NCBI GenBank assembly: GCA_050575255.1
Contig: JBNZDD010013726.1
Location: 3,045,763 to 3,109,762 of the forward strand
Reading direction: 5' to 3'
From: Harriotta raleighana
Taxonomy: Eukaryota
DNA length: 64,000 bases
Under the pieces are notes generated by a model. That model did no database searches, was not told the DNA's origin, and worked only from the letters and a program-made list of their open reading frames with translations. Both the position numbers and the translations under genes were made by a program. Shown here piece after piece: positions 836 to 56,649 of this stretch. Every line of letters begins with the position of its first letter. Positions within the stretch are counted from its first letter, which is position 1.

Positions 836-934
836 AGCATTAAGTGTAATTGTCAAAAAGAGGGCCACAGTACAAAAGGAGCAGTGGCTTCACATGTTGA
901 TAAGACTACCCAAACTGTCCACAAAGAAACTCAT
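836..934 (+). CDS. CCSER2: CCSER2 internal coding exon (99 nt, phase 0/0): SIKCNCQKEGHSTKGAVASHVDKTTQTVHKETH
   Basis: Pyrimidine tract plus cacag acceptor (831-835), donor CAT|gtaagt (935), open frame of 33 codons. DKTTQT matches the recalled human CCSER2 ADKYTQT segment just before the alternative C-termini. Confidence 0.85.
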
Positions 935-2011: not shown

Positions 2012-3282
2012 AATAATCTGTCCTTGTTTCATCTGAGTGAATACAGATGTTGAAATGATTCTCTATAACTAATCCTTGATTAATACAACTGAGTAGCAAT
2101 TAGAATACACCCAAGGAGCTAATCCTCTTCTTACAAGAACCGCGCAGTTTTACATATTCCAAGATATTTCTACTTGTAGAGTAGATGAAATTGTAGAACT
2201 ATCCATTAAAATAACACATTTGCTGAAGGAACACAAATCTGGATTCATGCTCATCAATTAATGATTCGTACTTTTCAGGACAAAGTTGAGAGTTTTATAA
2301 ATGATCATCTTTTGAAATGCATGATGTATTTGTTGGGCAGTTAAAATAGCAATTTGTCCACTAACAGTAAATCTACATCCAATAAATGCAGTGCAAGATC
2401 ATTTTCATTTTTTTGTTCAGTAAATTGAGGATTTGGAGGTTGTAATAAATGTACAAATTTGGGGGAGTTGTGATAAATGTAGCTCAGCAAGTAACAGTTA
2501 CCATTTTAACTGTGATTCAGATGCTTGCTATTGCTTTGTACAAGTGTTTGTTTTCCAGATAGTTGAATCACAATGGTCTTTTGGTTCCTGTGAATTTCTA
2601 TTTTACAAAGGAGATTTAGTATTTCTCTATTAATGCTGATATTCATTATTTGAAAACGTGGGCACATGAAGCATTTGGAGTAGTCCGTCATCAGTATGCT
2701 CATCACAAACAATTCCTACTTCATATGTTATATAGTGCACCAATGTTATTATATGTATGAGAAATGAGTTTTGTCATCTGAAAANTTGATAAGTATTTAG
2801 TAATTCTCTATTAATGCTGATATTCATTATTTGAAAACGTGGGCACATGAAGCATTTGGAGTAGTCCGTCATCAGTATGCTCATCACAAACAATTCCTAC
2901 TTCATATGTTATATAGTGCACCAATGTTATTATATGTATGAGAAATGAGTTTTGTCATCTGAAAAGTTATTGGTAGGGGTGCCATTTGTAAATGCCTGAA
3001 ACAATCATGCAATGATTTTCACATCTGAAATGTTACATTCCTTATATTACAGTATTATAAACCAAAATTATATCCTTTTTTGAATTATTTCCATTTAAAA
3101 AATGTAAAGATCTTCTTTAAATCGCCATTACAAGTTTACTAAAGGACATTTAAAATGCCAAAATACAGGTTATTAAATAATAAGTTTACAATATGCATTT
3201 TATATTTGTTTTGAATGTCATTTAAGTTATTCTTTAACTCAAATTTGAAAAAGCAAAGAACAGCTTCAGATAGAAAGAACTA

Positions 3283-4514
3283 TCCTCTATCTGTGACCAG
3301 GACTCCCTCTGCCTCCTTGTCCTCCTGGACCTCTCAGCCGCTTTCGCCACAATCGATTACGCCATCCTCCGCCACCGCCTGTCCTCTGTCGTCCACCTCA
3401 GTGGGACCTCACTCGCCTGGTTCATGTCCTACCTCACAAACCGCCAACAGTACATCTCTACTAACGACTTTTCCTCCCACTTTTGCCTGGTTACCTTTGG
3501 GATACCCCAAAGATCTATCCTTGGACCCCTTCTCTTTCTTATCTACATGCTGCCTCTTGGTGATGTCATCCGGAGACATGGGATACACTTCCACATGTTT
3601 GCGGATGACACCCAACTCTATTTTTCACCTCAATTTGTGACCCCCAGTCCCCTGATGTTCTGTCAGCCTGCCTGTCAGACATCAAGAGCTGGATGAGTGC
3701 AAATTTCCTTCAGCTCAANATTGACAAGGCAGAGGCCATACTCTTTGGCTCTCGTCGATTTCTTCAGTCCCACGGCTCTCACCTCCTCCACCTACCCTAA
3801 AACTCTCCGAACCCTTAAGCAACTCAGGCATCAGGTGTGACCCCCAATTATCCTTCCTCCCCCTCATCCGTTCCCTCACCAGCACCACTTTCTTCCAGCT
3901 CTGACGCCCATCTCCGCCAATATCTCACCCCAAAAGTTGCCTAAACACTGGTTCATGCCTTTGTCACCTCTTGGTTGGACTATTTAAATGCCCCACTTGC
4001 TAGTCTCCCCTTAACCATTAACCAAATCCAGTTCATCCAAAATTCTGCTGTCCNTATTCTGACCCATACCAAACTTCTCTCCCCGATTACCTCAGTCTTT
4101 GCCAGTCTTCACTGGCTCCCTGTCTTGGAGCGGATCGATTTCAAGATCCTCAGTCTTGTTTTCAAATCCCTCCACTCCTCTGCAACCCCTACCTCTCTGA
4201 CCGCCTGTCTCCTCGCAACAGCACCAGTTGCCTTCGCTCTACTGGGTCCTGCCTCCTTCGTCCCCCGAATCCTTCGTGACCATGCCTTCAGCCACTCCGC
4301 CCCGAGACTCTGGAATTCCCTTCCTCACTCCCTTCGCCTCAAGCCTTCTTTTCCCATTTCCAGATCACAGCTAAATACCTTTCTTTTCGACTGCGCTTTT
4401 GGTCACCTTTTCCCCTTCCCACTGGCTCGGCCCCGGGATCCGTTATTGTGAACCACTCTGAGTCATCGTCCTGCGTGGAGGGCGCTATATAAATCCAAAT
4501 TGTTGTTGTTGTTG
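3283..4514 (+). mobile_element. 5'-truncated L2-clade LINE: disrupted RT, ORF2 C-terminus and 3' tail
   Basis: Motifs LLDLSAAF, GIPQRSILGPLLFLIY, HMFADDTQLY, LHWLPVLERIDFKIL and APRLWNSLP; frameshifted; tail gcgctatataaat...(ttg)n. Confidence 0.92.
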
Positions 4515-6704
4515 CTTGTAGCTTTCAGTCAGCCATCAATTATCCTACCATCTTTTGAAAAGGTTTGTTTTCCTTGACCAAACATTTGGTATCTTACATG
4601 ATCCACTTTGCTCAGAATAAAAAATAGCATTATAAAGACATTTTCAGCCTGTACAATTACATCAATCTTGCAGATAGATATACATGTTATTTATTATTCT
4701 TGTTTCTCGTCCTTACACACATCTAAACCCGTTCACTACCTTTGCTGCATATTGCCTCTCAATTACTCTCGTTCAGCCATACTCCTTTGCTCATTATTGC
4801 TTTCCTGGCACTTCTGCCCTAATCCACTCTTCATCTGGCTCCAATATCCTCTCTCAGTCAGGCAGGTCTCTCTGTCTAGCTCAGACCCTGGGATTTGACT
4901 GTGCATCTTTCTAGCCCTATCCTTCCATGATGGTGTTTCCTGGTTAGTCCAGATATCTCTTCTCTTCTAAATGCAGCCTACACTGATAGTCAACCTGCAA
5001 ATTGCACTGTGATTCACCTACATTTCACCCATGAAAAGCAAACCCAGCAGTAGTGAATTCTAAATTAGAGCTCTGCTTCTCCATATTTCTGTATTTGCTG
5101 TGATCCTGCTCATCTAAACTGTATCTTATCATCAGTTGAATAACATTGTGCTCATAAGAGAAAGTATTTTCAATAAAAACTATATTGTTGGTTTGAACTT
5201 CCAACCACCAACTCTCCAGCTGTGCAACTTTTCCCAGAGGTTTAAGAGCAATCAGTTTAATAATCTGCCGTGCATCCCAATGGGGAGAATATTATTTATA
5301 ATGATCTACAGCCTTGTTCTGTAAAACCTGCTTATTCAAACTTTTGCAGTTCGAATATATTTAATCCAAATTTTTTTTTAATGGTTTGCTCTTGCTTTAT
5401 CCTTGCCTCTACACAGATACTCAGGAGTAATTTGTGAAAAGATGAGACTTTATCGATCTACATTAATGGCTACTATCACAGTTTAAATGTGAATACTATT
5501 TTTAAATAATTGAATTTTTGCCTCAACATCAGGATTTAATGAGACCATCTGATTATGTCAAGATAAGTCATAAGGGAAAACACGGGAAACTAAATTATTT
5601 CTCACATCTAAACTTATATTACAAATAATAAATAATAAAACAACGTTTTGCATTCTCCCTACAGTATAAATTTTATTGGCGTGTACCAATTGTTAACTTC
5701 CTTTTTGAGCTGAAAAAGGTGAATTGATATGATTTCCTTAACATTCCTTGTTGTGCCACTAATATTAGATAGCAAATGCTCAGTATGAATACTGAAAGAG
5801 TGGATGATTGAGTGACAAGGAATGTTGACCTTTGGCAACCTTTATCTTGTTGAATTCGAACAGCATTGTCGAACATTTTATGAAACAGCCACATTAATGC
5901 TGTTAATGATGTATTGACTTGTATGGAAGGATAATGATCTGCAGTAAATTATATGTTTATATTAGGTTTTTATGGAAGCATTGCCCTTTTAGTATATAGC
6001 TGATTTTAGTGAGGGCTCTTTTAAGCCCGAGATGTTCCCTATTCATTCAAGATGACATTTTTGAGCACGATTTTCTTTGGACCTTCACAATAACTTGCTC
6101 TATTTCACCATTTTTTTTCCTTCGTGTTCATTTCCCTTTCTTAAGGTATTTTGGGATTCCATTCCATGAGTGCTCACAGCTTTGTGATAACTTGTCCAAG
6201 TTGCCATGCTTCATGTGTGACTTAGACAGTGAGTTGCAATAAGCTGATCAACCTTGAAGGAGAAGAGGAAACATTTATAACCAAGCCCCATCAGAGGTCA
6301 CTTGGTAGACTTTAGTAGCCGGAGCCCTCACTCATAATTGTTGTTTTCTGTTTCTTAGGACGTTAAAATGAGGTTCATCCTGTAGGTCAGATACTGCTGA
6401 TTATACAATATCATGCTCAGGCTGTGGCACTGCTTTAAGCCAATGCAATGAGACAGATAAAGAGACTGCCTCTCTGTGCAACCGATCCAAAAGTATCTAA
6501 AATAGTAGCAGAAAATTATAATGTCCCAGAATTCCACCTAACCTTACCCTTTAACACCATTTCATCCTAAAATGTAAGATTGTAGAATTGCAGAAAATTA
6601 TTAAATTCTATATTATTTTGGAAGTTTTCTGTGATTTTTAAAAGTGGAACACCATCCAAATTAAAACTGAATTCATGATTTTTAAGTTGTTTTTATAAAT
6701 TCAA

Positions 6705-8811: not shown

Positions 8812-8896
8812 GCTGGGCCCTCTGCTCCGTCCTCCTCTTCCTGGCAGGGTTTGTTCCAGAGGAATGCACGTCCCATCCAGCTACAACGCCGACCGA
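8812..8896 (+). CDS. CCSER2: CCSER2 85-nt cassette exon (3n+1, frameshifting): AGPSAPSSSSWQGLFQRNARPIQLQRRP+a
   Basis: ~60-nt pyrimidine tract, cacag acceptor ending at 8811, donor CGA|gtgagt (8897). The peptide resembles the recalled human short-isoform segment GGYSAPSFSPWQGSFQGIPRTVPPHRRQ. Confidence 0.85.
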
Positions 8897-19735: not shown

Positions 19736-20360
19736 ACTTTTTGTGCGCAACATCGTGTTTATTTGTAGTCAAATATATCAGAGACTTAATAAACTGCATT
19801 GTTGCATCGTGCTGCTAATTTCTGAATGAAGTCGGTATTGCATTAGAAAAAGGGAACTATACTAAAAGGTGCAGTTCCTAGGAAGGAGATCCTGTGTGCT
19901 GAACAGATTATCACAAAGAGCATCGCTGAGTATTAACCACAGAACTGTCAAACCTCCCTTTTTTCACTGCTAAATTAAACAGGTCGATCGGCTTCCAATC
20001 TATCTCACAGATCAATCAGCTTCCAATCTATTTTGATTATAAATGTTACTCCCAGCATTTTCCACAGCTCTTTGAATAGTTAATTTGCTAGAAGAGCTCA
20101 GTGTGCTCTACAGTGCATTAAAGAATGAAACTTCTACAGGCCAACTAAAGAATATATTATGGTTATTAAGAAAATCTTTACGGATTATCTTTCATTAGGA
20201 AAGGGAAATTATATAGATTAAAATTAATTAAGTTTTTTTATATAAATTAAAATGTTATCCAGTACTCCGAATTAATTGATGTAATTCATTGGTTTGTTTG
20301 TAAAGTCACTGTCCATTTCCTTGTCTTCTTTGTCTCTCCCTATCCATTACCTGATGCAAG

Positions 20361-20400
20361 GATTTGAGGATGTTGTCCATTACTTCTATGATAAAGCGTG
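20361..20400 (+). CDS. CCSER2: Candidate 40-nt alternative exon of CCSER2 (3n+1)
   Basis: AG-free, pyrimidine-rich stretch 20306-20358, TGC just before the aag acceptor, weak donor GTG|gtacag, and three TGCATG within 66 nt downstream. Open in both usable phases: DLRMLSITSMIKR(A) or (R)FEDVVHYFYDKA(C). Confidence 0.55.
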
Positions 20401-20434
20401 GTACAGTACAGTTAAATAATATTGCACTGCTGCC

Positions 20435-20639
20435 TGCATGTTGCATGAGTGACAAAATCTTGCATGTATTGTTAATCCTACACGGCAGAATTATATCAAT
20501 GTACGATGAAATTTTACACAAATTGTATGTGCTTTTTATGTGCAATACACAAGCATGCAAATATACCTATATATGAAAACAAAGTAGTTAAGTCTAAGAT
20601 TTCCTGTGAACTTAATCACACTATAAGCTCCACTGCATG
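20435..20639 (+). promoter_or_regulatory. RBFOX (TGCATG) intronic splicing element cluster
   Basis: TGCATG at 20435, 20442, 20461 and 20634; GCATG at 20553; immediately downstream of the candidate exon. Confidence 0.6.
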
Positions 20640-20669
20640 AAGCAATATATTTTGGTCTCCAGCACCCCC

Positions 20670-21005
20670 TTCTATGTGATTCAGCTATAAAAATAATAAA
20701 GGAATTAACAGGTTAGATGGTGGATGCCTCTTCGGTTTGATAGAGGGATTCATTGCAAGGGACAGAACTTTCAAATTGGAACTGTTAAAATTTAGTTCAG
20801 CTAACATTTATTCACAGAGTGTTATGAAACTGTGGAATATTTTGCCCCAGAAAGCTGTTAAAGGCAGAATCAATAGCGGTATTTAGAAAAGAGCCAGGTG
20901 ATAGAGACATTATCTTGAAAGGACAAGGCAATGGGATTAAAAGATCTTTCAAGATCAAATAAATTGGTGAAACTGGTTTGAAGGGCCTAATGTACCTATC
21001 CTACT
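20670..21005 (+). mobile_element. CR1 LINE 3' fragment
   Basis: ttcacagagtgttatgaaactgtggaatattttgccccagaaagctgt...gaagggcctaatgtacct (F..RV...WN.LP remnant plus CR1 3' UTR). Confidence 0.7.
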
Positions 21006-24480: not shown

Positions 24481-24850
24481 AACAATAACCCCAGACATGT
24501 TATCTTATGGTAGAATTTTCAGCTAGACAGAAAATATTCATATTACTGTACTAGTTTTTTTTTAAAAATTTCCACCATCCATCTTGTATGCTTCATCCTC
24601 GAAATAAGTGCCACAGTTTTAAATGTTCCTGTGTGATTTGCTTCAAAATGCTTTTGTTTCTCAATCAAATGATTATGTTGCTTTCATCCAGTGCCCATAC
24701 CTTCTTCTAGATTTTATTCATGCATGGTCTTTAGAAACAAAATAAAGTAGGATGTCCTGGTGATTGGACAGGTTTGGTCTTAGAAAAGTGCTAAGTATAT
24801 GTAAAAGTATGCGTAAAAGTGCTCTAACATGGCTTTTCTTCTTCCATCAG

Positions 24851-24945
24851 CCTCCAGTACTACAGCCTTCCAGCCACACACTCAGCTCAAGCGACTTCCA
24901 CGTGGAAAAACTAGCAAAAACAGTGCAAATCGAGGACCCCAGTAG
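24851..24945 (+). CDS. CCSER2: CCSER2 terminal exon, overlapping short-isoform frame: (T)SSTTAFQPHTQLKRLPRGKTSKNSANRGPQ*
   Basis: Frame reached after a 3n+1 exon; TAG at 24943-24945. Matches the recalled human short tail TSSTTAFQQPSQTHRSHPGKTNKATTYRGPQ in length and both ends. Confidence 0.85.
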
Positions 24946-25795
24946 GTGTATGGAGCAAGCTACGTACGAAAACTGCCAAACCAATCAAAATACAAAAGTT
25001 ACTGATTCCCCACAGATGGATTCAGACAAGCTTAGCTTTCTTTTAGCCTCACAGTTGAAGATGGAAGATTCTGATGAAAATCTTCCAAAAAGCAAAGTGC
25101 ACAATACAGGCAAGCAGATTCTAAATATTCCGCCTAACTTTTCATCTAAGGAACAGGCTTCTTNTGGTCCTAATCAGGCTTCTTTGCAGCAGATCTGTAT
25201 CGCTGGACCTTTGGAATTCACAGAGGAAACCATAAATAAAGACTCTCAGCCCACATTTTCCTTTAGACAATGTCAGCCTTCTAAGGATTTAAATATTGCA
25301 TCCCAGAACTTGTCTTCACGATTGCCATCCCCTTTATCCGTAACAGCTAGAAAGAATGCTCCAATCACTCAAACAAGTCCTTTACCTACAAAATGTCCAG
25401 TTCAACCATCCGGACATGGCCCGAAAGAAAAGGGTCATCATTCTCAGTTAAAAATACCCTTAAACCAGTCAAACCAAAACAATGAACAAAAGAGAAACTC
25501 TAAACTACCACCATCATTGTATTCATCACTTCTAAAGACTAAGATTGCAGGGCCCTTGATTGAGTCTGGATCACCAATCAGAGAGATTCAAAATGCTGAG
25601 GCAACTCGTCACCAGAATGAGCCCCATTTTCAGTTTCTACCAATAAACAAGCCACAGAAACCCCAATCATCCCGAAACGACCGTCCTGGACAACAGCGTG
25701 AATCCCAGATAGAGAAAATGGCAACTTCCATCAGATATTCTCGCCTTCCTAAACCAAAGATGCATGTGTCCAACTCCTCAAACTATAGTTTTTAG
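24851..25795 (+). CDS. CCSER2: CCSER2 terminal exon, long-isoform frame (314 aa, PPVLQPSS...RYSRLPKPKMHVSNSSNYSF*)
   Basis: Acceptor ttttcttcttccatcag (24850). Longest ORF in the window, S/P/Q-rich. Its start and end match the recalled human PQVLQPSS... and ...RYSRLPKPKIH. Confidence 0.9.
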   Translation, partial: PPVLQPSSHTLSSSDFHVEKLAKTVQIEDPSRCMEQATYENCQTNQNTKVTDSPQMDSDKLSFLLASQLKMEDSDENLPKSKVHNTGKQILNIPPNFSSKEQASXGPNQASLQQICIAGPLEFTEETINKDSQPTFSFRQCQPSKDLNIASQNLSSRLPSPLSVTARKNAPITQTSPLPTKCPVQPSGHGPKEKGHHSQLKIPLNQSNQNNEQKRNSKLPPSLYSSLLKTKIAGPLIESGSPIREIQNAEATRHQNEPHFQFLPINKPQKPQSSRNDRPGQQRESQIEKMATSIRYSRLPKPKMHVSNSSNYSF

Positions 25796-32261: not shown

Positions 32262-35200
32262 AGTATTGGAACTGGATAGGTAGGAGTTTCTTTTTAATTT
32301 ATGTCACAGTAAGCCTATTGGCTATGCTTAGATTTCATTGTGTGAGTTAATGCAGAATCAAGTTTACAGATGTTCATGCAGCATTTCCATTACCTTCAAC
32401 AATGCTGTCACAGCTACAAAAGAGGGATTTGCTCCTCTTCCCCTGTATACCGGGGTAATGGAAACACATTAGGCTTGAAAAAAATCCCACTCAAGAGGCA
32501 TAACTTTTTAACATGCTGCATGTTATTTAATGCAACAGAAAATATGCTGATAATGTTGTTTGAAAAATGAATGGATTCAGTGACGTGTTTACACAGAGCA
32601 CATATATCTGGGTTTGTTTTATGTGATTATGGGAATAGAAAATCCAAATTCTAAGGATGTTGCCAAAAGGTCATTATTCAGGAGATAAATCATTGGGCTA
32701 AAAGTCACAGAATAAGTGAATGCCAATATTGTTTTAGGAGTTCTGTATTAAAGGAAGTGATTGCACCAGTTTCCCCTACATGAAGAAAATGTGTGATCCT
32801 GGCACTTTGTGGAGCATCGTTTCATTGGGAAAAGTTTGAAGCTTACTTGAGCTGATCCTTAACTATAAACTTCTCATTGTAGCATTTATCAGACTCAAAT
32901 TAATTAAACTAAAATTAAAGATATCCTTAAAATCCAAATTATTTCACTGTTTTTCCCCCAAGGTCATGTATAAAACACCTGTTTTTAAAACAAAAATGCT
33001 CATGTATTAATGCTGACTTTGGAAATAATGAGCTTGAAAAACTCAATTTTGCTCAAGTTGCCTTGTGGAAGATATTTCATTCGTCATTTTATTCACTAGC
33101 AGGTGATTAATATATCTATTATTCTGTCATAACATCCTTCTACAGAAATTGCCACTGATAAGCAATGGGAATGCAAGAGAATACATAGTAGTACTGTTCA
33201 CAATACTGCAGGCATTCATATTTACTGTCACTGGGAATNTGATAAGCAATGGGAATGCAAGAGAATACATAGTACTGTTCACAATACTGCAGGCATTCAT
33301 ATTTACTGTCACTGGGAATATGAGAAGATAAACAGACTAGCCCTAAATGTGTGGTTTAAAGTAAACACAGGCACATTTCTGATGGAGAACATGTTCCAAA
33401 TTATATCATAATTCAGCCAAAATAAGTGACTATAGTATATGCTCACTTTGAACATTTGAAAGCACTGCATGTTACCATAACAACTCCCTCACCATACCTG
33501 CATTGAGCCTTTCTGGAATATCAACACTAAAAAAGCTATTCCATGCATAAAATATGGGTTTGATCCACAATAAACCACCTAAATAAAGAACTAACCAAAT
33601 GGGTCCACCAAGGTACAGTACTAATCCTGGACACTCATAGTCTTGTCGCTGCATCCTCTTAAACCACCTGACATGCAATTTATGTCATGAGCACTACAAA
33701 ATGTCCCTAAGCATTTTGGAGTCTTACTAAATGTTATTTCATTAGCATGCGTCAAGTAGAGTCCTTCCTACAGGATCAAAAAAAGACGTAGAGGCTGTAT
33801 CTATCACTTGTGATTTGCACAGCATCTTTTTGTGGTACAAAAGTATTGTTAATAGCTTTCTTTGTTCCTAACACTCATGTATTTGTTTGAACTAAGTAAT
33901 AAGCATGCTAAGCCGCAGTAACCCTACTGCAAATTGCACACTCACATTGACTCATTTTCAAGGTGCACTGTGTTTTGTCATCATGATTTACTTCACTGAT
34001 GAAGTTCATGTTAAATCATATTGCTTTCAAGTGAATTTCCTTCATAAAATCTCAGTCGATAGCTTAGAGAATGTGTTTTGTTGAATTTTCAATCTGTTTT
34101 TGTGTTGGAATGGTTTGTTTTGACCAACAAGCCTATTTGAATTCCCCGCTCTCACATGTATGCTTGCAGTGTGTCTGCTACCTCCCTGTCAGCTTGTGCT
34201 AAACTACTTCGTAAACTAGTGTATGCTTAAGCATTTGTGAATGGAAACAAATCTTGAATTTATCTCAACCTTGTCTCAATAAACATGGAGAATCCATCTT
34301 CTTCCTCTTATTTCAAGCATACCAATTAACTTCCTTCGTGCATTACCAGCTAAATATAAAAATATATGTATCTGAATTGATCCCCTATAGAGCTCATAAC
34401 ATCTAGACATATGGACCAAAGTCCGGGATTTTATGGGGGATGGAAAAGAACAAACATTGCACAAGTGTAGTTCTAAAATGATAAAAAGAAACTCACACTT
34501 GATTTCAAAATACGCCATGGGGCTTAACAATTGGAATGCTATGAAGTGGAAAAGAATGCAAACACCTCAAAACTCAGTGAGAGTATATATTGATGCCTAG
34601 GAAATGCTTTTTAAAGCATTCATGAAAATTCAAGCATTTGATAAACGTTTATAAATTCAATTTCCACGAGAGGAAAAGGATTTATTAATCAACTAGCAGA
34701 CGTACATTGTGCTTGCTACTCTTATGTATCGCATCATTTCATGTATATACTTCATTTACTTAAGTACTGCATTGTTCAGGGAATGAATAAAGCCTGAAAA
34801 AGCCTTATATGGATTAAGTGATTATGCTCACCTTGAAATTGTCATAGCAGGGAAGAAGAGTTAATCTATGAAATGTTTGGGGTGTTGTTCATGACAAATG
34901 TTTCCAAGAAAAAATGGAAGTTATACAACATTACTGTCTATCAGCATATTTTCCATGAATTCCGTTATTTTTAGTGGAATCTAGTAGGAATTTTCTCAGC
35001 AAGTTTTTGTTAAACTTTTTCTTTTCCAAATATACAGTGTGTACCACTCCACTGTGAAATTGTAACAACACTGTAAGGACATTTCATTGATGTGAAGTTC
35101 CTCATCATTCGGATATAGTTCGTCTTTTATGGCAATGCAGTAGAGTCTGTAAATGATACGACTGATGAAAATATTTCAGATGCAAAACTAGGCAGATAGA

Positions 35201-39200: not shown

Positions 39201-40286
39201 TGTTTCTTCTGCTCTCCATTAAATGAAGAAAACATTGAGTAGCAAAATATGATCAGATGCCTCCCACCATAATATATCCTTTTAACTAGAACTGTTGATT
39301 CCCAATCCCTATTCCACTGGGTTTTTTGTTGTTAAAAAAATCATTTTAGTCATATTTTCATGGTTAAAAGCTGGATTTTCTGAAATGTTTCATTCTACAA
39401 ATTGATAGTTTCCATATTTAATTCACTGGTAAGATTTCACATAAAGTTGACACACAAATGGATATCCAAGTATAATTCTGATTCAAATGCATCCTATGGA
39501 CCAAAGCACTTATCATTCACCTTCTTCTGTATAGAATCCAAATAATTTATTATTCCTATCCCACTAAAGAATTCAAATGAACTACATCACCACAACTGTA
39601 TGAATCAAGTATATATTTCCATTACAGTATATAGAATTTCAATTGAACTAAATTGAATCTCATTCATAGCTATTGTGTACCATTCTAGTGGACTAAGCTG
39701 CTTCACATGATCTGGAATTCCAAAAAAACAAATCATTTCTTATTTCATGCAATTTTTATAGAATTCCAGCAGATTGCCCCCACTACCCGCCCACTTCCTA
39801 ATATCTTTTTCAATATTGTGCAGAATGTCAGTATATCAAACTCTTTCTAATCATTTTGAATTGATAGCATTGCACAGTGGACAAAAAATATCCCATTCAT
39901 TCCATCGACAACTTGCGTTTATATAACGGTTCTCACGCAGGGTAGCATCTCAGAGCAAATCATGTGAAATGTTCAATTCAAGCACAAATTATCTGAATAT
40001 ATATTTTATTATTTAGACTTTATTGTTCACCAGCATACAAAATATATCTGGTTAATGGTTAAATTTTTACTTGACAACACCATTGCATTTTCGAATCTAT
40101 TTACTAAATATATTTTTACTTCATCTTTTCTACTGGTTTAATTTAAATGAAATTGGTGAATGTATNTACTTGACAACGCCATTGCATTTTCGAATCTATT
40201 TACTAAATATATTTTTACTTCATCTTTTCTACTGGTTTAATTTAAATGAAATTGGTGAATGTATCTTGTAAAGTGCCACAATATAT

Positions 40287-40668
40287 AACAACAACAACAA
40301 AATTACACTTGTATAGCACCTTTCACGTCAGGAGGACATCCCAAGGCGCTGGACAGTCATTGTTTCAGACCCAAGATGGGGTCGGGGATTGGGACTTGGG
40401 GTTACTGATGGGACTGTCGAAGAGGAAGGCCTTGATGCGGGACAAGAGGAGGCTAGGGAGAGGGTGAGGCGGAGAGACTGTGTGATGGAGTTCCAGAGGT
40501 TGGGGGCAGAGTGGCTGAAGGCTCACCCATGGGTGGGTCGGGGGACGTGGAGTAGGCTGGAGCCTGCTGAGCTGAGGGGGCAAGTAGGGGATTAGGAGGT
40601 CGCAGAGATGGGGTGGGGCAAGGCCCTGGAGGGCTTTGAATGTGAGCACCAGGATCTTGAATCGAATA
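40287..40668 (-). mobile_element. L2 LINE 3' fragment
   Basis: Minus ORF RFKILVLTFKALQGLAPPHLCDLLIPY plus tail ending in (ttg)n. Confidence 0.9.
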
Positions 40669-40939
40669 CATAAGTTTTCCATTTGAAAGTCTTTCATCTG
40701 AATTATACTGATACTAATTCAAGCTTAATATTTCTTGGTAAATTGTATTAAGGTTAATTTCTTGTCAAATTTCCAGGATGTAAACACACAAAATCATGTT
40801 TCAGTCTTACTTTAATGATGTATGCATAAGAGGCAAAACAACAAAAAGCATTTACTATAAAACTGAAAATGCCTTAAGCTCTCTGGTGTGTCTTTTCATG
40901 TGAAGAGTTTATATAAATGTTACATTGAAGACTTCTCTT

Positions 40940-44035: not shown

Positions 44036-46795
44036 TTATTTGGGGGTTGGACAGTGGTGGTTTCGCGTACTTGATGATTTAGAACTAGATATGCTTAGCT
44101 ACTGTTAAGAAATTATTGCTTATTTTTCAGAGCTCTGCAACTAAGGTAAGATTATTCGCCTTACCTTATCTAATAGTAAATGATGTACAGTACCTCTTTA
44201 CCAGCTGTTAATATGATCAATAATTTATTTTCAGCCTGAATTTAATCATCCTCAATGAGACATATACAATGGGGCATACAAAGGAATACTTTTTATTTGA
44301 CATAATGTATTGGCTATTACATTCAGCAATCTTATGATGAATGCTTTTCTTAAGCATGCATTTGCACATTCCTGGAACCATACATCATTAAGAACCTCTC
44401 ACATTCAGGTGGTATAATCCTATTGCAGGAACAATTTTTGAAATATAATGCCACAGCAAGTAATAATGCTAAGATTTACCAGTAGGTCTGCATATAAAGA
44501 TCTCATCTTCCATTCTTAGCAAATCCCTTCCTTGCTAGTACTGAAAGAAGGTAGGCATCTGAAATCTTGAACATTTTGAAAAGGTCTATTGAAAGTAACT
44601 GCCCGATAAACACAATAAACAAGTAATCACATCTGCTATCATCCAGTGAATACATCCCCCATTGTATCAATTGTTACTTGAAGAACAGAAATATGTTCTA
44701 TAAAGATTTAATAGATGATCAAAATGTTTGAAGGGTAATAATTCAATGAGGAATCTGATTCAGTCACCAATTACATTCTCGGTAAAGAAAAACTTTAAGA
44801 TATCTGGCCCTGAAGTTTTACTGATGTGATTTCTTAACAAGGAAACAGTGTACAATAACTAGATCTTGTTGGAACAGATTTTCTCAGTCAATTGAAGTGA
44901 GGATTAAAGAAATTACCACATATAAGAGTTCCCCTTCCTCGCCTTCACCATTAATTGTATTGGTGCAGGTCTCTCACCATTAATAGTATTGGTCATTTAC
45001 TGCCTCCTAGGTTATTGATGATGTGTGACAAGAATTCAACTGAGCAATGAAATGTGTTTCGCTCACTGAAAAAAACATTAAAAGTATAATTATACAGTAA
45101 ATTGGAGAAGTATGAACAAGAAGGTCTGCATGAACTTGTCTCAATATCTGCCCTTACCTTGTGCTCAAGTGGCCATTTAAATGAAAAACAAAGCCGTTGC
45201 AGGGTATATACATGCCTTGATATTGAATATTAATAGAAAGATGTCTTCAAAATGTATGTTAATATGATAAATTGTGCATTTATACAAACTCAATTTTTTT
45301 TCTCTCATGGTTGCTGATCTTCATGTAAAATTGAACTACTCTGACAATTAGAAACAGAAACATACTGTAAATATTTGCATCTTTTTAACAAATCAGTGCC
45401 ACCTGAAATGCAATTTTAATCTAATTAAAATTGAGTTGCTCACTTTAACATTATTTATTCACAGAATTCTATTATGGTATATATTTAGATGATATATACA
45501 CCATATATACTACCAGTATTACCAGTGTGTATGTCTGTGAATATTCCATTCCCTCCTTCAGAATAGTTTTTCAGTTTTATTTGAAGAAGGCCTCAGGAGA
45601 CTTCCCCTTGCTACANGATATATACACCATATATACTACCAGTATTACCACTGTGTATGTCTGTGAATATTCCATTCCCTCCTTCAGAATTGTTTTTCAG
45701 TTTTATTTGAAGAAGGCCTCAGGAGACTTCCCCTTGCTACAGATACTAGGAATACTTGTCACAGGGATTACAGATACCAGTAATTACACAATATTCAATA
45801 GGCCATGCTAATATTTTTTTTCCTGCCTATGGCATTAAGGATACTGTATATGATAAAGGAGAATTCCTTCAGAAACCAGGTCAAAGGCGCAAACATAATT
45901 CAAAAGATTTCAACCTCACTATGACAACTACTATATTTATAACAACGTAAGATAAAATTCACACAGCCAAATGTGCAACCTCACAAGGTTTGCATTTTTG
46001 TGTATGTTTTTGTATTCACTAAATCCAGAGGAGAGATTATGTTGCTTCCAAGGTTTTTAATCGTATCTGAATGTACAGTTGTGTTTTCAGTGATGATAAT
46101 TAATGCTGATAGGGCTTAAAACATTAGTTGTAAAGGAAAATACTTTTATTATCAAGCAATATTTGTTTTGTAATGAAAAGTCTCCAATATTAATAGGTTA
46201 TATCTGTTCTAAACCTCTTCTAATTTTAAGCTTTCCATATTGTGTTCCCCCAGGGCTCTGTTCACTTTGTTCCATCTTCATATTAATGTTCTCCATCATT
46301 CATCCATGCATCATTCCAACTTAGTTCAAATTTTACTTCTCTGTGTAACTCAGCAACTTTTTAACTTCAACATCAAATGTTGGTGGGATATTTAAGGTCA
46401 AAGGTAAATAAAGTTTATTCCTCAAATGTCTGTTTCTAATTTACCTTCTCTTTGTTTTTTTTTCTATGAGACTTATTTGGTTTAATTTCTTGGATTATAC
46501 TATATCCTAAATTATACCTTGTGTTTTCTCTACTATTCATTTGAGATTATTATTTTTAATTCTAGTACTTTAAAATATGTGGGTAGAAATTCCACCTGGA
46601 TTTATCCTATTAACATTAGCCTTTCAGATTGTGCAGATTTTAACAACATTTTTAATTCTGTTTTAAGTTTGAAGCTCATTTTCTGTACTTATTAAAATTC
46701 CTAGTGTATATCTAGAACTATGTCAAAATTCCAGTGATAGTTCCCCAGTGTTATTGCAATGGAAAACAATGTGGATGATCCTCAGTGCATGAATG

Positions 46796-54378: not shown

Positions 54379-56649
54379 TGGGTTGTCATCCGGATTCATT
54401 TTTAAAGGTGATTTTCATTCATTTAGAATTTTCATCTTGCATTTCACAGTGTAAAAGCTTTGCAGTCATAGCCCATTTTTTTTTTAAAAAAACTTCTCAG
54501 TTCAGTTTGCTCATGAGAAACCTGGCTCCCGCATAATTTGAAATATTATTAAAGTTAGCACAAAATAGTAAGTGTTCTTATGGTATCAATTACCAAAGGC
54601 TGTCTGGAGCGCAACTTCTCTTTAGCATTGAATTACCAGGAGAGCTTTCCACGCAATTTTTATTTACTCAATACATATTTATCATCATTGAACAAAGTAA
54701 CACTGGAGACTCCACCTGTATCTCATTTCATACATTTGCAATAAAGCTATGATTTAATTTCTTCTTCACATTTTGCTAGAGTCTTTCAAGAAAAACTATT
54801 GAGTAGAGAATCTTCTAAGTAAATTATGAGTTTGTCCTTTCCTCCTGGATGAGAAGCAGGCTAAAAAATGGAGTTCCTGAATACGATAAATTTATGATTA
54901 CAACTCTGTTCCTAGCTCTTTATAATACGTTCAATTATGAAAAAGGGAAAAACCAATTGGAAACCCGTTATACACTATGAAGGGAAGAAACTCAATATGA
55001 CTGAGTAACACACTGGACAAATTATTCCATATTCGTGGCATATCAGCAACAGTAAATCCAGTGATTTCACAGCTTAAGCAGTCATAACTCTTATAGAAAT
55101 CCAAACGATGTTCTGTTCAGAGGAAAAATTATTGGGAGTCCCACAAGTATGCAACTCATTAATTAGTGAGAATATATCTATGGTTATGAGGTCCCATGTT
55201 ATTGTAAAGTATAAATGTTGAACCCATTATTGGTAAATATCAGTTGACTAGCATCTGTTACATGATATAGGTTATATTTTATCTCTTAAACACCCTGGTG
55301 GTGATGTGCGGTATGAGCTGTGCAGCGGATACAATTGTCCTTCGATGTGAAGAGTTGCAGCTGATTGCACATTCCTCAAGTCTTGTGTACCCTTTTTATC
55401 CTCCAGTCTGCACACTTTCCTCAGCTGGACCATACTGCGGTTTAATGAAAGGTCACACCTGAAGCACATTTTCTATTCAGGTGTTGATGGGCATGCTGTG
55501 AAATTTCCAGCACTTAATAACAGAAACCCTTTAGTCCTCAATAAAAAACTTGTTGTGTTAACTCTGCAGACTTTGAAATAGAAGGATTTGTGGGTCTAAA
55601 GTTATCTTGGTTTTGCTGAATCAGTATTGGATGATGCACAAATTGAAGGACTCAGTCAAAGTAAGTATGTTATAGGTGAGAAAACTGGCTGTATTAAAAT
55701 TATGAAGTGCAAATGATCTCAGACTAGGAAGATGGATCATTTGACTAATCTTAAAAAATAGGTGAGGCTGGCAGCATTTGTTGCCTTGTTAAGGTGTTGG
55801 CCTTTAAACCACTGCAGTTTTTGTACTGATGGTTATATTTCTTGAACAATCAAGAACATTTTTACAAAAATTTGACATGGCATATGGTTGCACTATTACA
55901 AGGAACATTTGGCCAAGCCAGAATTTGTTTGATTGCATTTTATTTTCTTGTTGGGTGCTATTTTGAGATACATCATTCTTATACTTCCAATAATTTAGAA
56001 ACTGAATGATAGTGGTGCAACAATATTGATAACATCCATAATTGCAGTTTGAGGAATTGTGCACCTAGAAAGGCATGAAATGTTTCGTAAATCAAATGCA
56101 TGCCCAAATAAAGCCAACGTTGAAAAAGATTTGAAATTATCTATCACGGAAGCCAGTTTTGTTTACCATTAATGAGAAGAGGGGTGGAAAAGGATTTTAC
56201 GTACTGACTTATTTCTATCAGTACTTGCTAAATTTGGATTGGATGTTCTTACTTTGTGGAAATATTTGAGTTTGTAGTGCGTAACTTGATTGAGAATATC
56301 AAGTGAACTTTGTTCCTTGTACAGTACTCGTATTACAGAGGCTAGGTAGGTGTTTCACCACATAGAGTGGGAGAGGATCACCAGTAGTTAGTACTCTTAT
56401 TGACGAGCAATGGCTGGAGCATCCCTGCTTCAGTGATTCACAGAGAGTGTGGATCAGTGGACAACAAAGCTACCATGAGAAAAGAGCTTTTAAAGACATT
56501 TTTTTTAAATATCGGAGAACATCAAGACANTGCAGAGAGTGTGGATCAGTGGATCAGTGGACAACAAAGCTACCATGACAAAAGAGCTTTTAAAGACATT
56601 TTTTTTAAATATCGGAGAACATCAAGACAGCATAAGGTTAAAGGATGAT

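Follow-up and report, generated by a model that had tools for sequence, protein, structure and literature searches.

A 40-nt cassette exon of CCSER2 lies within the window, the whole 64,000-nt stretch of chimaera DNA that was analysed here. We give about 80% probability to the following reading: it is a conserved exon whose inclusion after an 85-nt alternative exon puts the last CCSER2 exon into a third reading frame, and this inclusion is likely neuron-biased and, as its flanking motifs predict, likely RBFOX-driven. The exon itself is real, ancient and already catalogued. The sequence-only reading of this DNA had proposed a pyrimidine tract, a TGC, an acceptor, a 40-nt exon, a donor and four TGCATG words, and all of these were present where they had been placed (Table 1). 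The four possible combinations of the 85-nt and 40-nt exons also translated as that reading had written them, with stops at 25793, 24943 and 24912. Its description of the exon as hidden, by contrast, did not hold. The exon is neither hidden nor new, because it is annotated in relatives, has been catalogued since 2015 and belongs to a gene whose triple coding is reported in a 2026 preprint.

Table 1. Features of the CCSER2 C-terminal switch. Positions are those of the whole 64,000-nt stretch, and features are on the (+) strand unless stated.
Feature	Position	Strand	Details or basis
99-nt CCSER2 coding exon, the last one shared before the switch; phase 0 at its end	836..934	+	matches C. milii residues
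85-nt alternative exon, +1 frame shift	8812..8896	+	ortholog of human hg38 chr10:84499875-84499959
Internal AG acceptor in the 85-nt exon, 36 nt in	8846..8848	+	would give a 49-nt same-frame version (to 8896)
Pyrimidine tract of the 40-nt exon	20306..20358	+	TCTT/CTCT (PTBP-type) words at -37 to -27
TGC before the AAG acceptor of the 40-nt exon	20355..20357 (-6 to -4)	+	sequence
40-nt cassette exon	20361..20400	+	encodes 14 residues; compared with annotated isoforms of relatives
Weak 5' splice site of the 40-nt exon	20401..20411	+	4/11 matches to the U1 consensus
Three-TGCATG cluster (RBFOX motif)	20435..20466	+	35-66 nt 3' of the donor; adjoins two YGCY words
Fourth, distal TGCATG	20634..20639	+	GCATG also at 20553
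Last exon start, three-frame region, with third-frame stop TAG 24912-14	24851..24914	+	translation
Second-frame stop (85-nt exon alone)	24943..24945	+	translation
C-terminal S-R-L-P motif (EB-binding SxLP type), long frame only	25739..25750	+	sequence
Long-frame stop	25793..25795	+	translation

Neural inclusion and triple coding in orthologs

Earlier work already covers the exon, its bias towards brain and the gene's triple coding. A 40-nt FAM190B exon at chr10:86267049-86267089 is among the 145 human brain-specific micro-exons in Supplemental File 2 of PMC4317164 (2015), where an exon counts as brain-specific if its median PSI in brain reaches 25 or more and the 80th-percentile value elsewhere does not exceed 10. 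The sequence-only reading had suggested a check of VastDB, and the supplement of PMC12626424 contains three 40-nt VastDB events, matched to the window's exon through the gene and the exon length rather than through sequence: HsaEX0024310 in human, with a neural dPSI of 46.14, and DreEX0019867 (ccser2a) and DreEX0019869 (ccser2b) in zebrafish, with neural dPSI values of 53.88 and 81.32, respectively. For ccser2a, inclusion climbs from 0 in early embryos to about 30 in larvae. All three events are classed as MINI_Neural, with regulation conserved between human and zebrafish; unlike the window's exon, they come from bony vertebrates only, respond weakly to SRRM3/4 and sit in a table that has no RBFOX column. 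The prediction of a neural exon was thus borne out for the human and zebrafish orthologs, whose tabulated inclusion is brain-biased.

The preprint bioRxiv 10.64898/2026.05.28.727796 names two genes in which a triple coding region is under selection in each frame, and CCSER2 is one of them. It reports peptides for all three CCSER2 frames, with peptide support in human, and finds the triple coding conserved to the earliest jawed vertebrates and the third transcript annotated only in RefSeq. Gene and three-frame last exon are the same as here, but its available text gives neither the length of the 40-nt exon nor a splicing regulator, and it describes the function of the isoforms as not known. The same source covers a second C-terminal switch, that of SH2B1 alpha/beta/gamma/delta, in which small inserted exons likewise choose among three frames of the last exon in a neurite-related gene; SH2B1 differs in having four isoforms with studied function and a younger third frame. 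By analogy with the orthologs in these papers, from which both properties are carried over, neural inclusion and translation of all three frames would extend to the chimaera gene.

Splice signals and candidate regulators

The AG preceding the acceptor of the 40-nt exon is at 20304-05, and the 53 AG-free nt that follow (20306-20358) are 77% pyrimidine. The acceptor AG is at 20359-60, the exon spans 20361-20400, and the donor reads GTG/GTACAG (the slash marks the splice site), with two overlapping GTACAG words at 20401-20411. Scored against the U1 consensus, this donor has 4 of 11 matches, compared with 9 and 7 for the two upstream exons. The TGCATG words start at 20435, 20442, 20461 and 20634, corresponding to +35, +42, +61 and +234 from the donor. 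A paralog or second CCSER2 copy was rejected, since the region of the 40-nt exon and the last exon each gave a single genome match (DNA search, lower bound).

We estimated the chance occurrence of this arrangement in 528,000 bases, namely both strands of the window together with 200 kb of upstream sequence. Comparable acceptors were defined as HAG sites with a 40-nt AG-free tract of at least 70% pyrimidine, which 334 of the 24,141 HAG sites possessed. Only one of these 334 had two or more TGCATG words within 150 nt, and it was the acceptor of the 40-nt exon. Its cluster was also the sole case of three TGCATG words within 100 nt among the 173 hexamers in these bases. The TGCATG cluster beside the 40-nt exon is therefore not due to chance.

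These data make RBFOX the probable main activator of the exon, a candidate role. According to PMC4317164, TGCATG is the one motif enriched downstream of alternative micro-exons (51 nt or shorter), and RBFOX binding there promotes inclusion. The 40-nt exon shares these features of that class: it is alternative and no longer than 51 nt, and UGCAUG occurs proximally downstream above chance. The catalogue of that paper includes the 40-nt FAM190B exon, and downstream TGCATG is its signature of alternative micro-exons in general. RBFOX control was demonstrated there for the class as a whole, and the window's exon differs in shifting the frame. Our literature search found no RBFOX knock-out or CLIP result for the 40-nt exon. 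The mouse Rbfox targets tabulated in PMC5989265 (12 of its 15 files) do not include the exon, and it had no match in one supplement each of PMC11419088 and PMC12064062.

Sites for other splicing factors also surround the exon. The main event could be release of PTBP1 from the CU-rich tract, or binding at MBNL or NOVA sites, with RBFOX as a minor helper; beyond the TCTT/CTCT words of the tract, YCAY occurs at -75, -55, -48 and -17 and YGCY at +28 and +31. Such short words were, however, also frequent around the other three exons, and only the TGCATG cluster was statistically unusual. We consider it unlikely that these factors lead.

The sequence-only reading had also pointed to SRRM3/4, and strong dependence on these factors is not supported by published measurements. 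A neural short exon controlled mainly by SRRM3/4 (eMIC) through the UGC beside its acceptor would have the layout seen here, in which a UGC at -6 to -4 separates a long AG-free pyrimidine tract from the AG. The human ortholog gains 11.05 PSI (+11.05) upon eMIC over-expression in HEK293 cells in PMC12626424, a gain that may be limited by rare inclusion of the 85-nt exon there. In the same source, however, none of three srrm3/4 mutant comparisons shifts zebrafish ccser2a beyond -6.41 PSI (the comparison covers ccser2a; ccser2b is without data), against a cut-off of -15 that 82 of 136 exons of 28-51 nt pass. SRRM3/4 microexons have strong 5' splice sites (10.1101/2024.09.17.613571), whereas the donor here is weak. 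At 40 nt, the exon is also longer than the 3-27 nt of SRRM3/4 microexons and belongs with exons of 28-51 nt. Of the 334 comparable acceptors, 94 (28%) carried a TGC within their last 15 nt, so the one at 20355-57 says little. Given the small mutant effect and the weak donor, SRRM3/4 would be at most a minor input, and we regard it as quite improbable as the main one. The chimaera sequence points to RBFOX over SRRM3/4.

Three reading frames of the last exon

Skipping of both the 85-nt and the 40-nt exon leads into the long frame, with a 314-aa tail and a stop at 25793. The 85-nt exon alone leads into the second frame (stop at 24943), and the two exons together lead into the third (stop at 24912), which ends in a hydrophobic 34-residue tail. 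This third-frame product, predicted by the sequence-only reading, is annotated in 14 of the 107 listed proteins analysed below.

As had been claimed, the last coding exon contains all three stops, 61 nt (third frame), 92 nt (second frame) and 942 nt (long frame) into it. Under the exon-junction rule, stops 3' of the last exon junction escape decay; none of the three should therefore trigger it, provided that the 3' UTR is intron-free. Within the reading frame of the 314-aa tail there is one N, at 25164, which adjoins a short repeated word and is likely an assembly join. Because the chimaera tail has three residues more than that of C. milii at this point, the true long tail may be about 311 aa. 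Further TGCATG words occur at 24721, 130 nt upstream of the acceptor of the last exon, and at 25761 and 26283 inside the last exon, the latter two being 3' UTR in the short isoforms.

Annotated isoforms in relatives

Isoforms of relatives, all of them database gene models, were collected as clusters of 18 matches, two of which were represented by 15 of 25 and 15 of 41 members. Of the 127 proteins listed, 20 did not carry the anchor motif of exon 836-934; excluding them left 107 anchored proteins. Among these 107 listed proteins, 55 had the long tail, 27 the tail produced by the 85-nt exon only, 14 the tail produced by the 85-nt and 40-nt exons and one a 45-nt variant; the remaining ten had other ends. 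The 40-nt exon was present in 14 and absent from the 82 listed anchored proteins of the long and second-frame classes. The 14 third-frame proteins listed came from 13 species: Callorhinchus milii, ten sharks and rays, the pangolin Manis javanica and the rattlesnake Crotalus tigris. C. milii has all three products annotated (P0001, P0020 and P0021).

The predicted boundaries of the exon agreed with these isoforms. All 14 exon-encoded residues (14/14) of the predicted third-frame tail were identical to those of C. milii XP_007895614.1 (P0021), and 10-13 of the 14 were identical in the 12 other species. Over the last four exons, 81 of 95 residues of the window product matched XP_007895614.1, and 19 of the 34 columns of the third-frame tail were invariant across the 14 proteins listed. 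XP_007895614.1 and the shark, ray, M. javanica and C. tigris isoforms have the same exon chain and third-frame tail as the window; the only difference is the usual sequence divergence towards the end of that tail. In the pangolin protein XP_036858567.1, the 14-residue segment is inserted at the same place, so the exon is also present in mammals. The product of the large upstream CCSER2 exon (L014) was 89% identical to that of C. milii and at most 56% identical to those of sharks and rays, which places the window in a chimaera-like cartilaginous fish. The comparison establishes the boundaries of the exon, its three frames and the annotated products across jawed vertebrates.

The sequence-only reading had envisaged a combinatorial code of four exon choices, in which the 40-nt exon would also be used freely without the 85-nt exon. 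The frame of that form is open and would join the second-frame tail. However, this form was absent from the 107 anchored proteins listed: a pattern search of all 127 listed proteins returned no case (0/127), nor did a reading of all tails, and conservation follows the other frame of the exon rather than the frame that it would have on its own. We see only a slim chance of a free four-way code. We infer that the 40-nt exon is in practice used only with the 85-nt exon, so that the gene makes three tails, not four.

A further GT at 20406 would yield a 45-nt exon, and one catshark model (P0049) among the anchored proteins listed is annotated with this +5 donor, which takes the exon peptide into the second-frame tail and possibly makes a minor fourth tail. 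That the segment is instead a terminal exon, or regularly uses the donor at 20406 or 20411, is very improbable: the weak donor, an AATAAA at 20695, a read-through frame that would stop after a few codons and the catshark model fit such use, but 14 listed proteins join at the 40-nt donor, one joins at the 45-nt donor and none reads through or uses a 50-nt donor among the 107, and the human and zebrafish tables give 40 nt. The terminal-exon and +10 donor readings, both named beforehand as outcomes that would count against a 40-nt cassette exon, were rejected because no such protein is among the 107 listed.

The 85-nt exon

The human counterpart of the 49-nt version of the 85-nt exon is HsaEX0024309, which is 49 nt long and shares its 3' end with the 85-nt exon. 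Compared with healthy tissue, breast and prostate tumours include HsaEX0024309 less. The 49-nt CCSER2 event is also among the matches listed for PMC7935315, a paper on SRRM4 (12 of its 19 files). The 85-nt exon is under RBPMS2 regulation in human cardiomyocytes, and so is its 82-nt counterpart in zebrafish (PMC9770155). Both the 85-nt exon and its 133-nt form appear as predicted Rbfox targets in the mouse network tabulated by PMC5989265. The window's 85-nt exon is free of TGCATG words over 150 nt on its upstream side and 300 nt on its downstream side.

Other features in the window

Near-perfect two-copy tandem duplications with a single N inside were found at 2614-2965, 33156-33327, 40067-40264, 45491-45745 and 56449-56629; they probably arose during assembly, at gap joins, and are unlikely to be genuine repeats. 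Broken repeat fragments occupy introns at 3215-4524 and 40365-40718, with many similar copies upstream, and we take them to be of the LINE-type reverse-transcriptase class. Upstream of CCSER2 on the opposite strand, a 463-aa open frame (L018:7938-9326, minus strand) looks like a large exon of what is presumably an NDNF-like gene.

Proposed consequences for the CCSER2 protein

[quoted passage not shown] Its NDEL1 site corresponds to human residues 657-687, and the switch point, near residue 773-777, is C-terminal to it. An SxLP motif was present in the last 30 residues of 50 of the 55 long tails listed. The short tails listed lack a C-terminal SxLP, the exception being an unrelated SGLP in four rattlesnake proteins. 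An N-terminal S-x-I/L-P-type motif at residue 13 was found in all 12 of the proteins checked (12/12). With the NDEL1 site before the switch point and the SxLP after it, both short tails would lose the C-terminal SxLP and keep the N-terminal motif and the NDEL1-binding helix, trading an EB-type motif for a short tail. The switch would accordingly alter the strength of plus-end tracking and the partners of the tail, not NDEL1 binding. Loss of the C-terminal SxLP in the short tails was not found stated in the available text of PMC11195223, PMC9974511 or the 2026 preprint, or in literature titles and abstracts.

Of the four S-x-I/L-P motifs in CCSER2, the two most conserved contribute to plus-end tracking, which drops when they are mutated (PMC11195223). 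The effect of losing the C-terminal SxLP could still be small: the mouse isoforms AS and A85 each retain plus-end tracking (PMC9974511), and cell shape is partly rescued by a mutant in which all four SxIP-type motifs are altered, so that loss of a single SxLP motif may matter little. An amphipathic helix in the third tail was unsupported, as the hydrophobic moment of 0.31-0.36 was matched by 14-25% of shuffles across all 14 sequences.

We propose that skipping of the 40-nt exon would be the default, resulting from its weak donor and far-set pyrimidine tract, and that neuronal RBFOX bound 35-66 nt downstream would rescue the donor; loss of PTBP-type repression upstream would perhaps help inclusion. 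The exon would be spliced into transcripts in which the 85-nt exon is already present, and inclusion of both would move the last exon to its third frame, giving the short hydrophobic 34-residue tail mainly in neurons. A bolder extension of this model, which we offer tentatively and hold to be possible rather than probable, is that the RBFOX cluster has been kept since before chimaeras diverged from the other jawed vertebrates and serves a two-step switch. In the first step, the 85-nt exon, which is RBPMS2-regulated in heart cells and a predicted mouse Rbfox target, would remove the long tail with its SxLP; in the second, the neuron-specific 40-nt exon would add a third, strongly conserved hydrophobic tail that binds some further partner, creating a neuron-only form of CCSER2, a regulator of NDEL1 and dynein.

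The triple-coding architecture is already published, and the window therefore adds one more cartilaginous-fish example only. The third tail is a conserved short product of CCSER2, a gene of the microtubule tip, and the persistence of three open frames in its last exon throughout the jawed vertebrates implies that all three tails are under selection.
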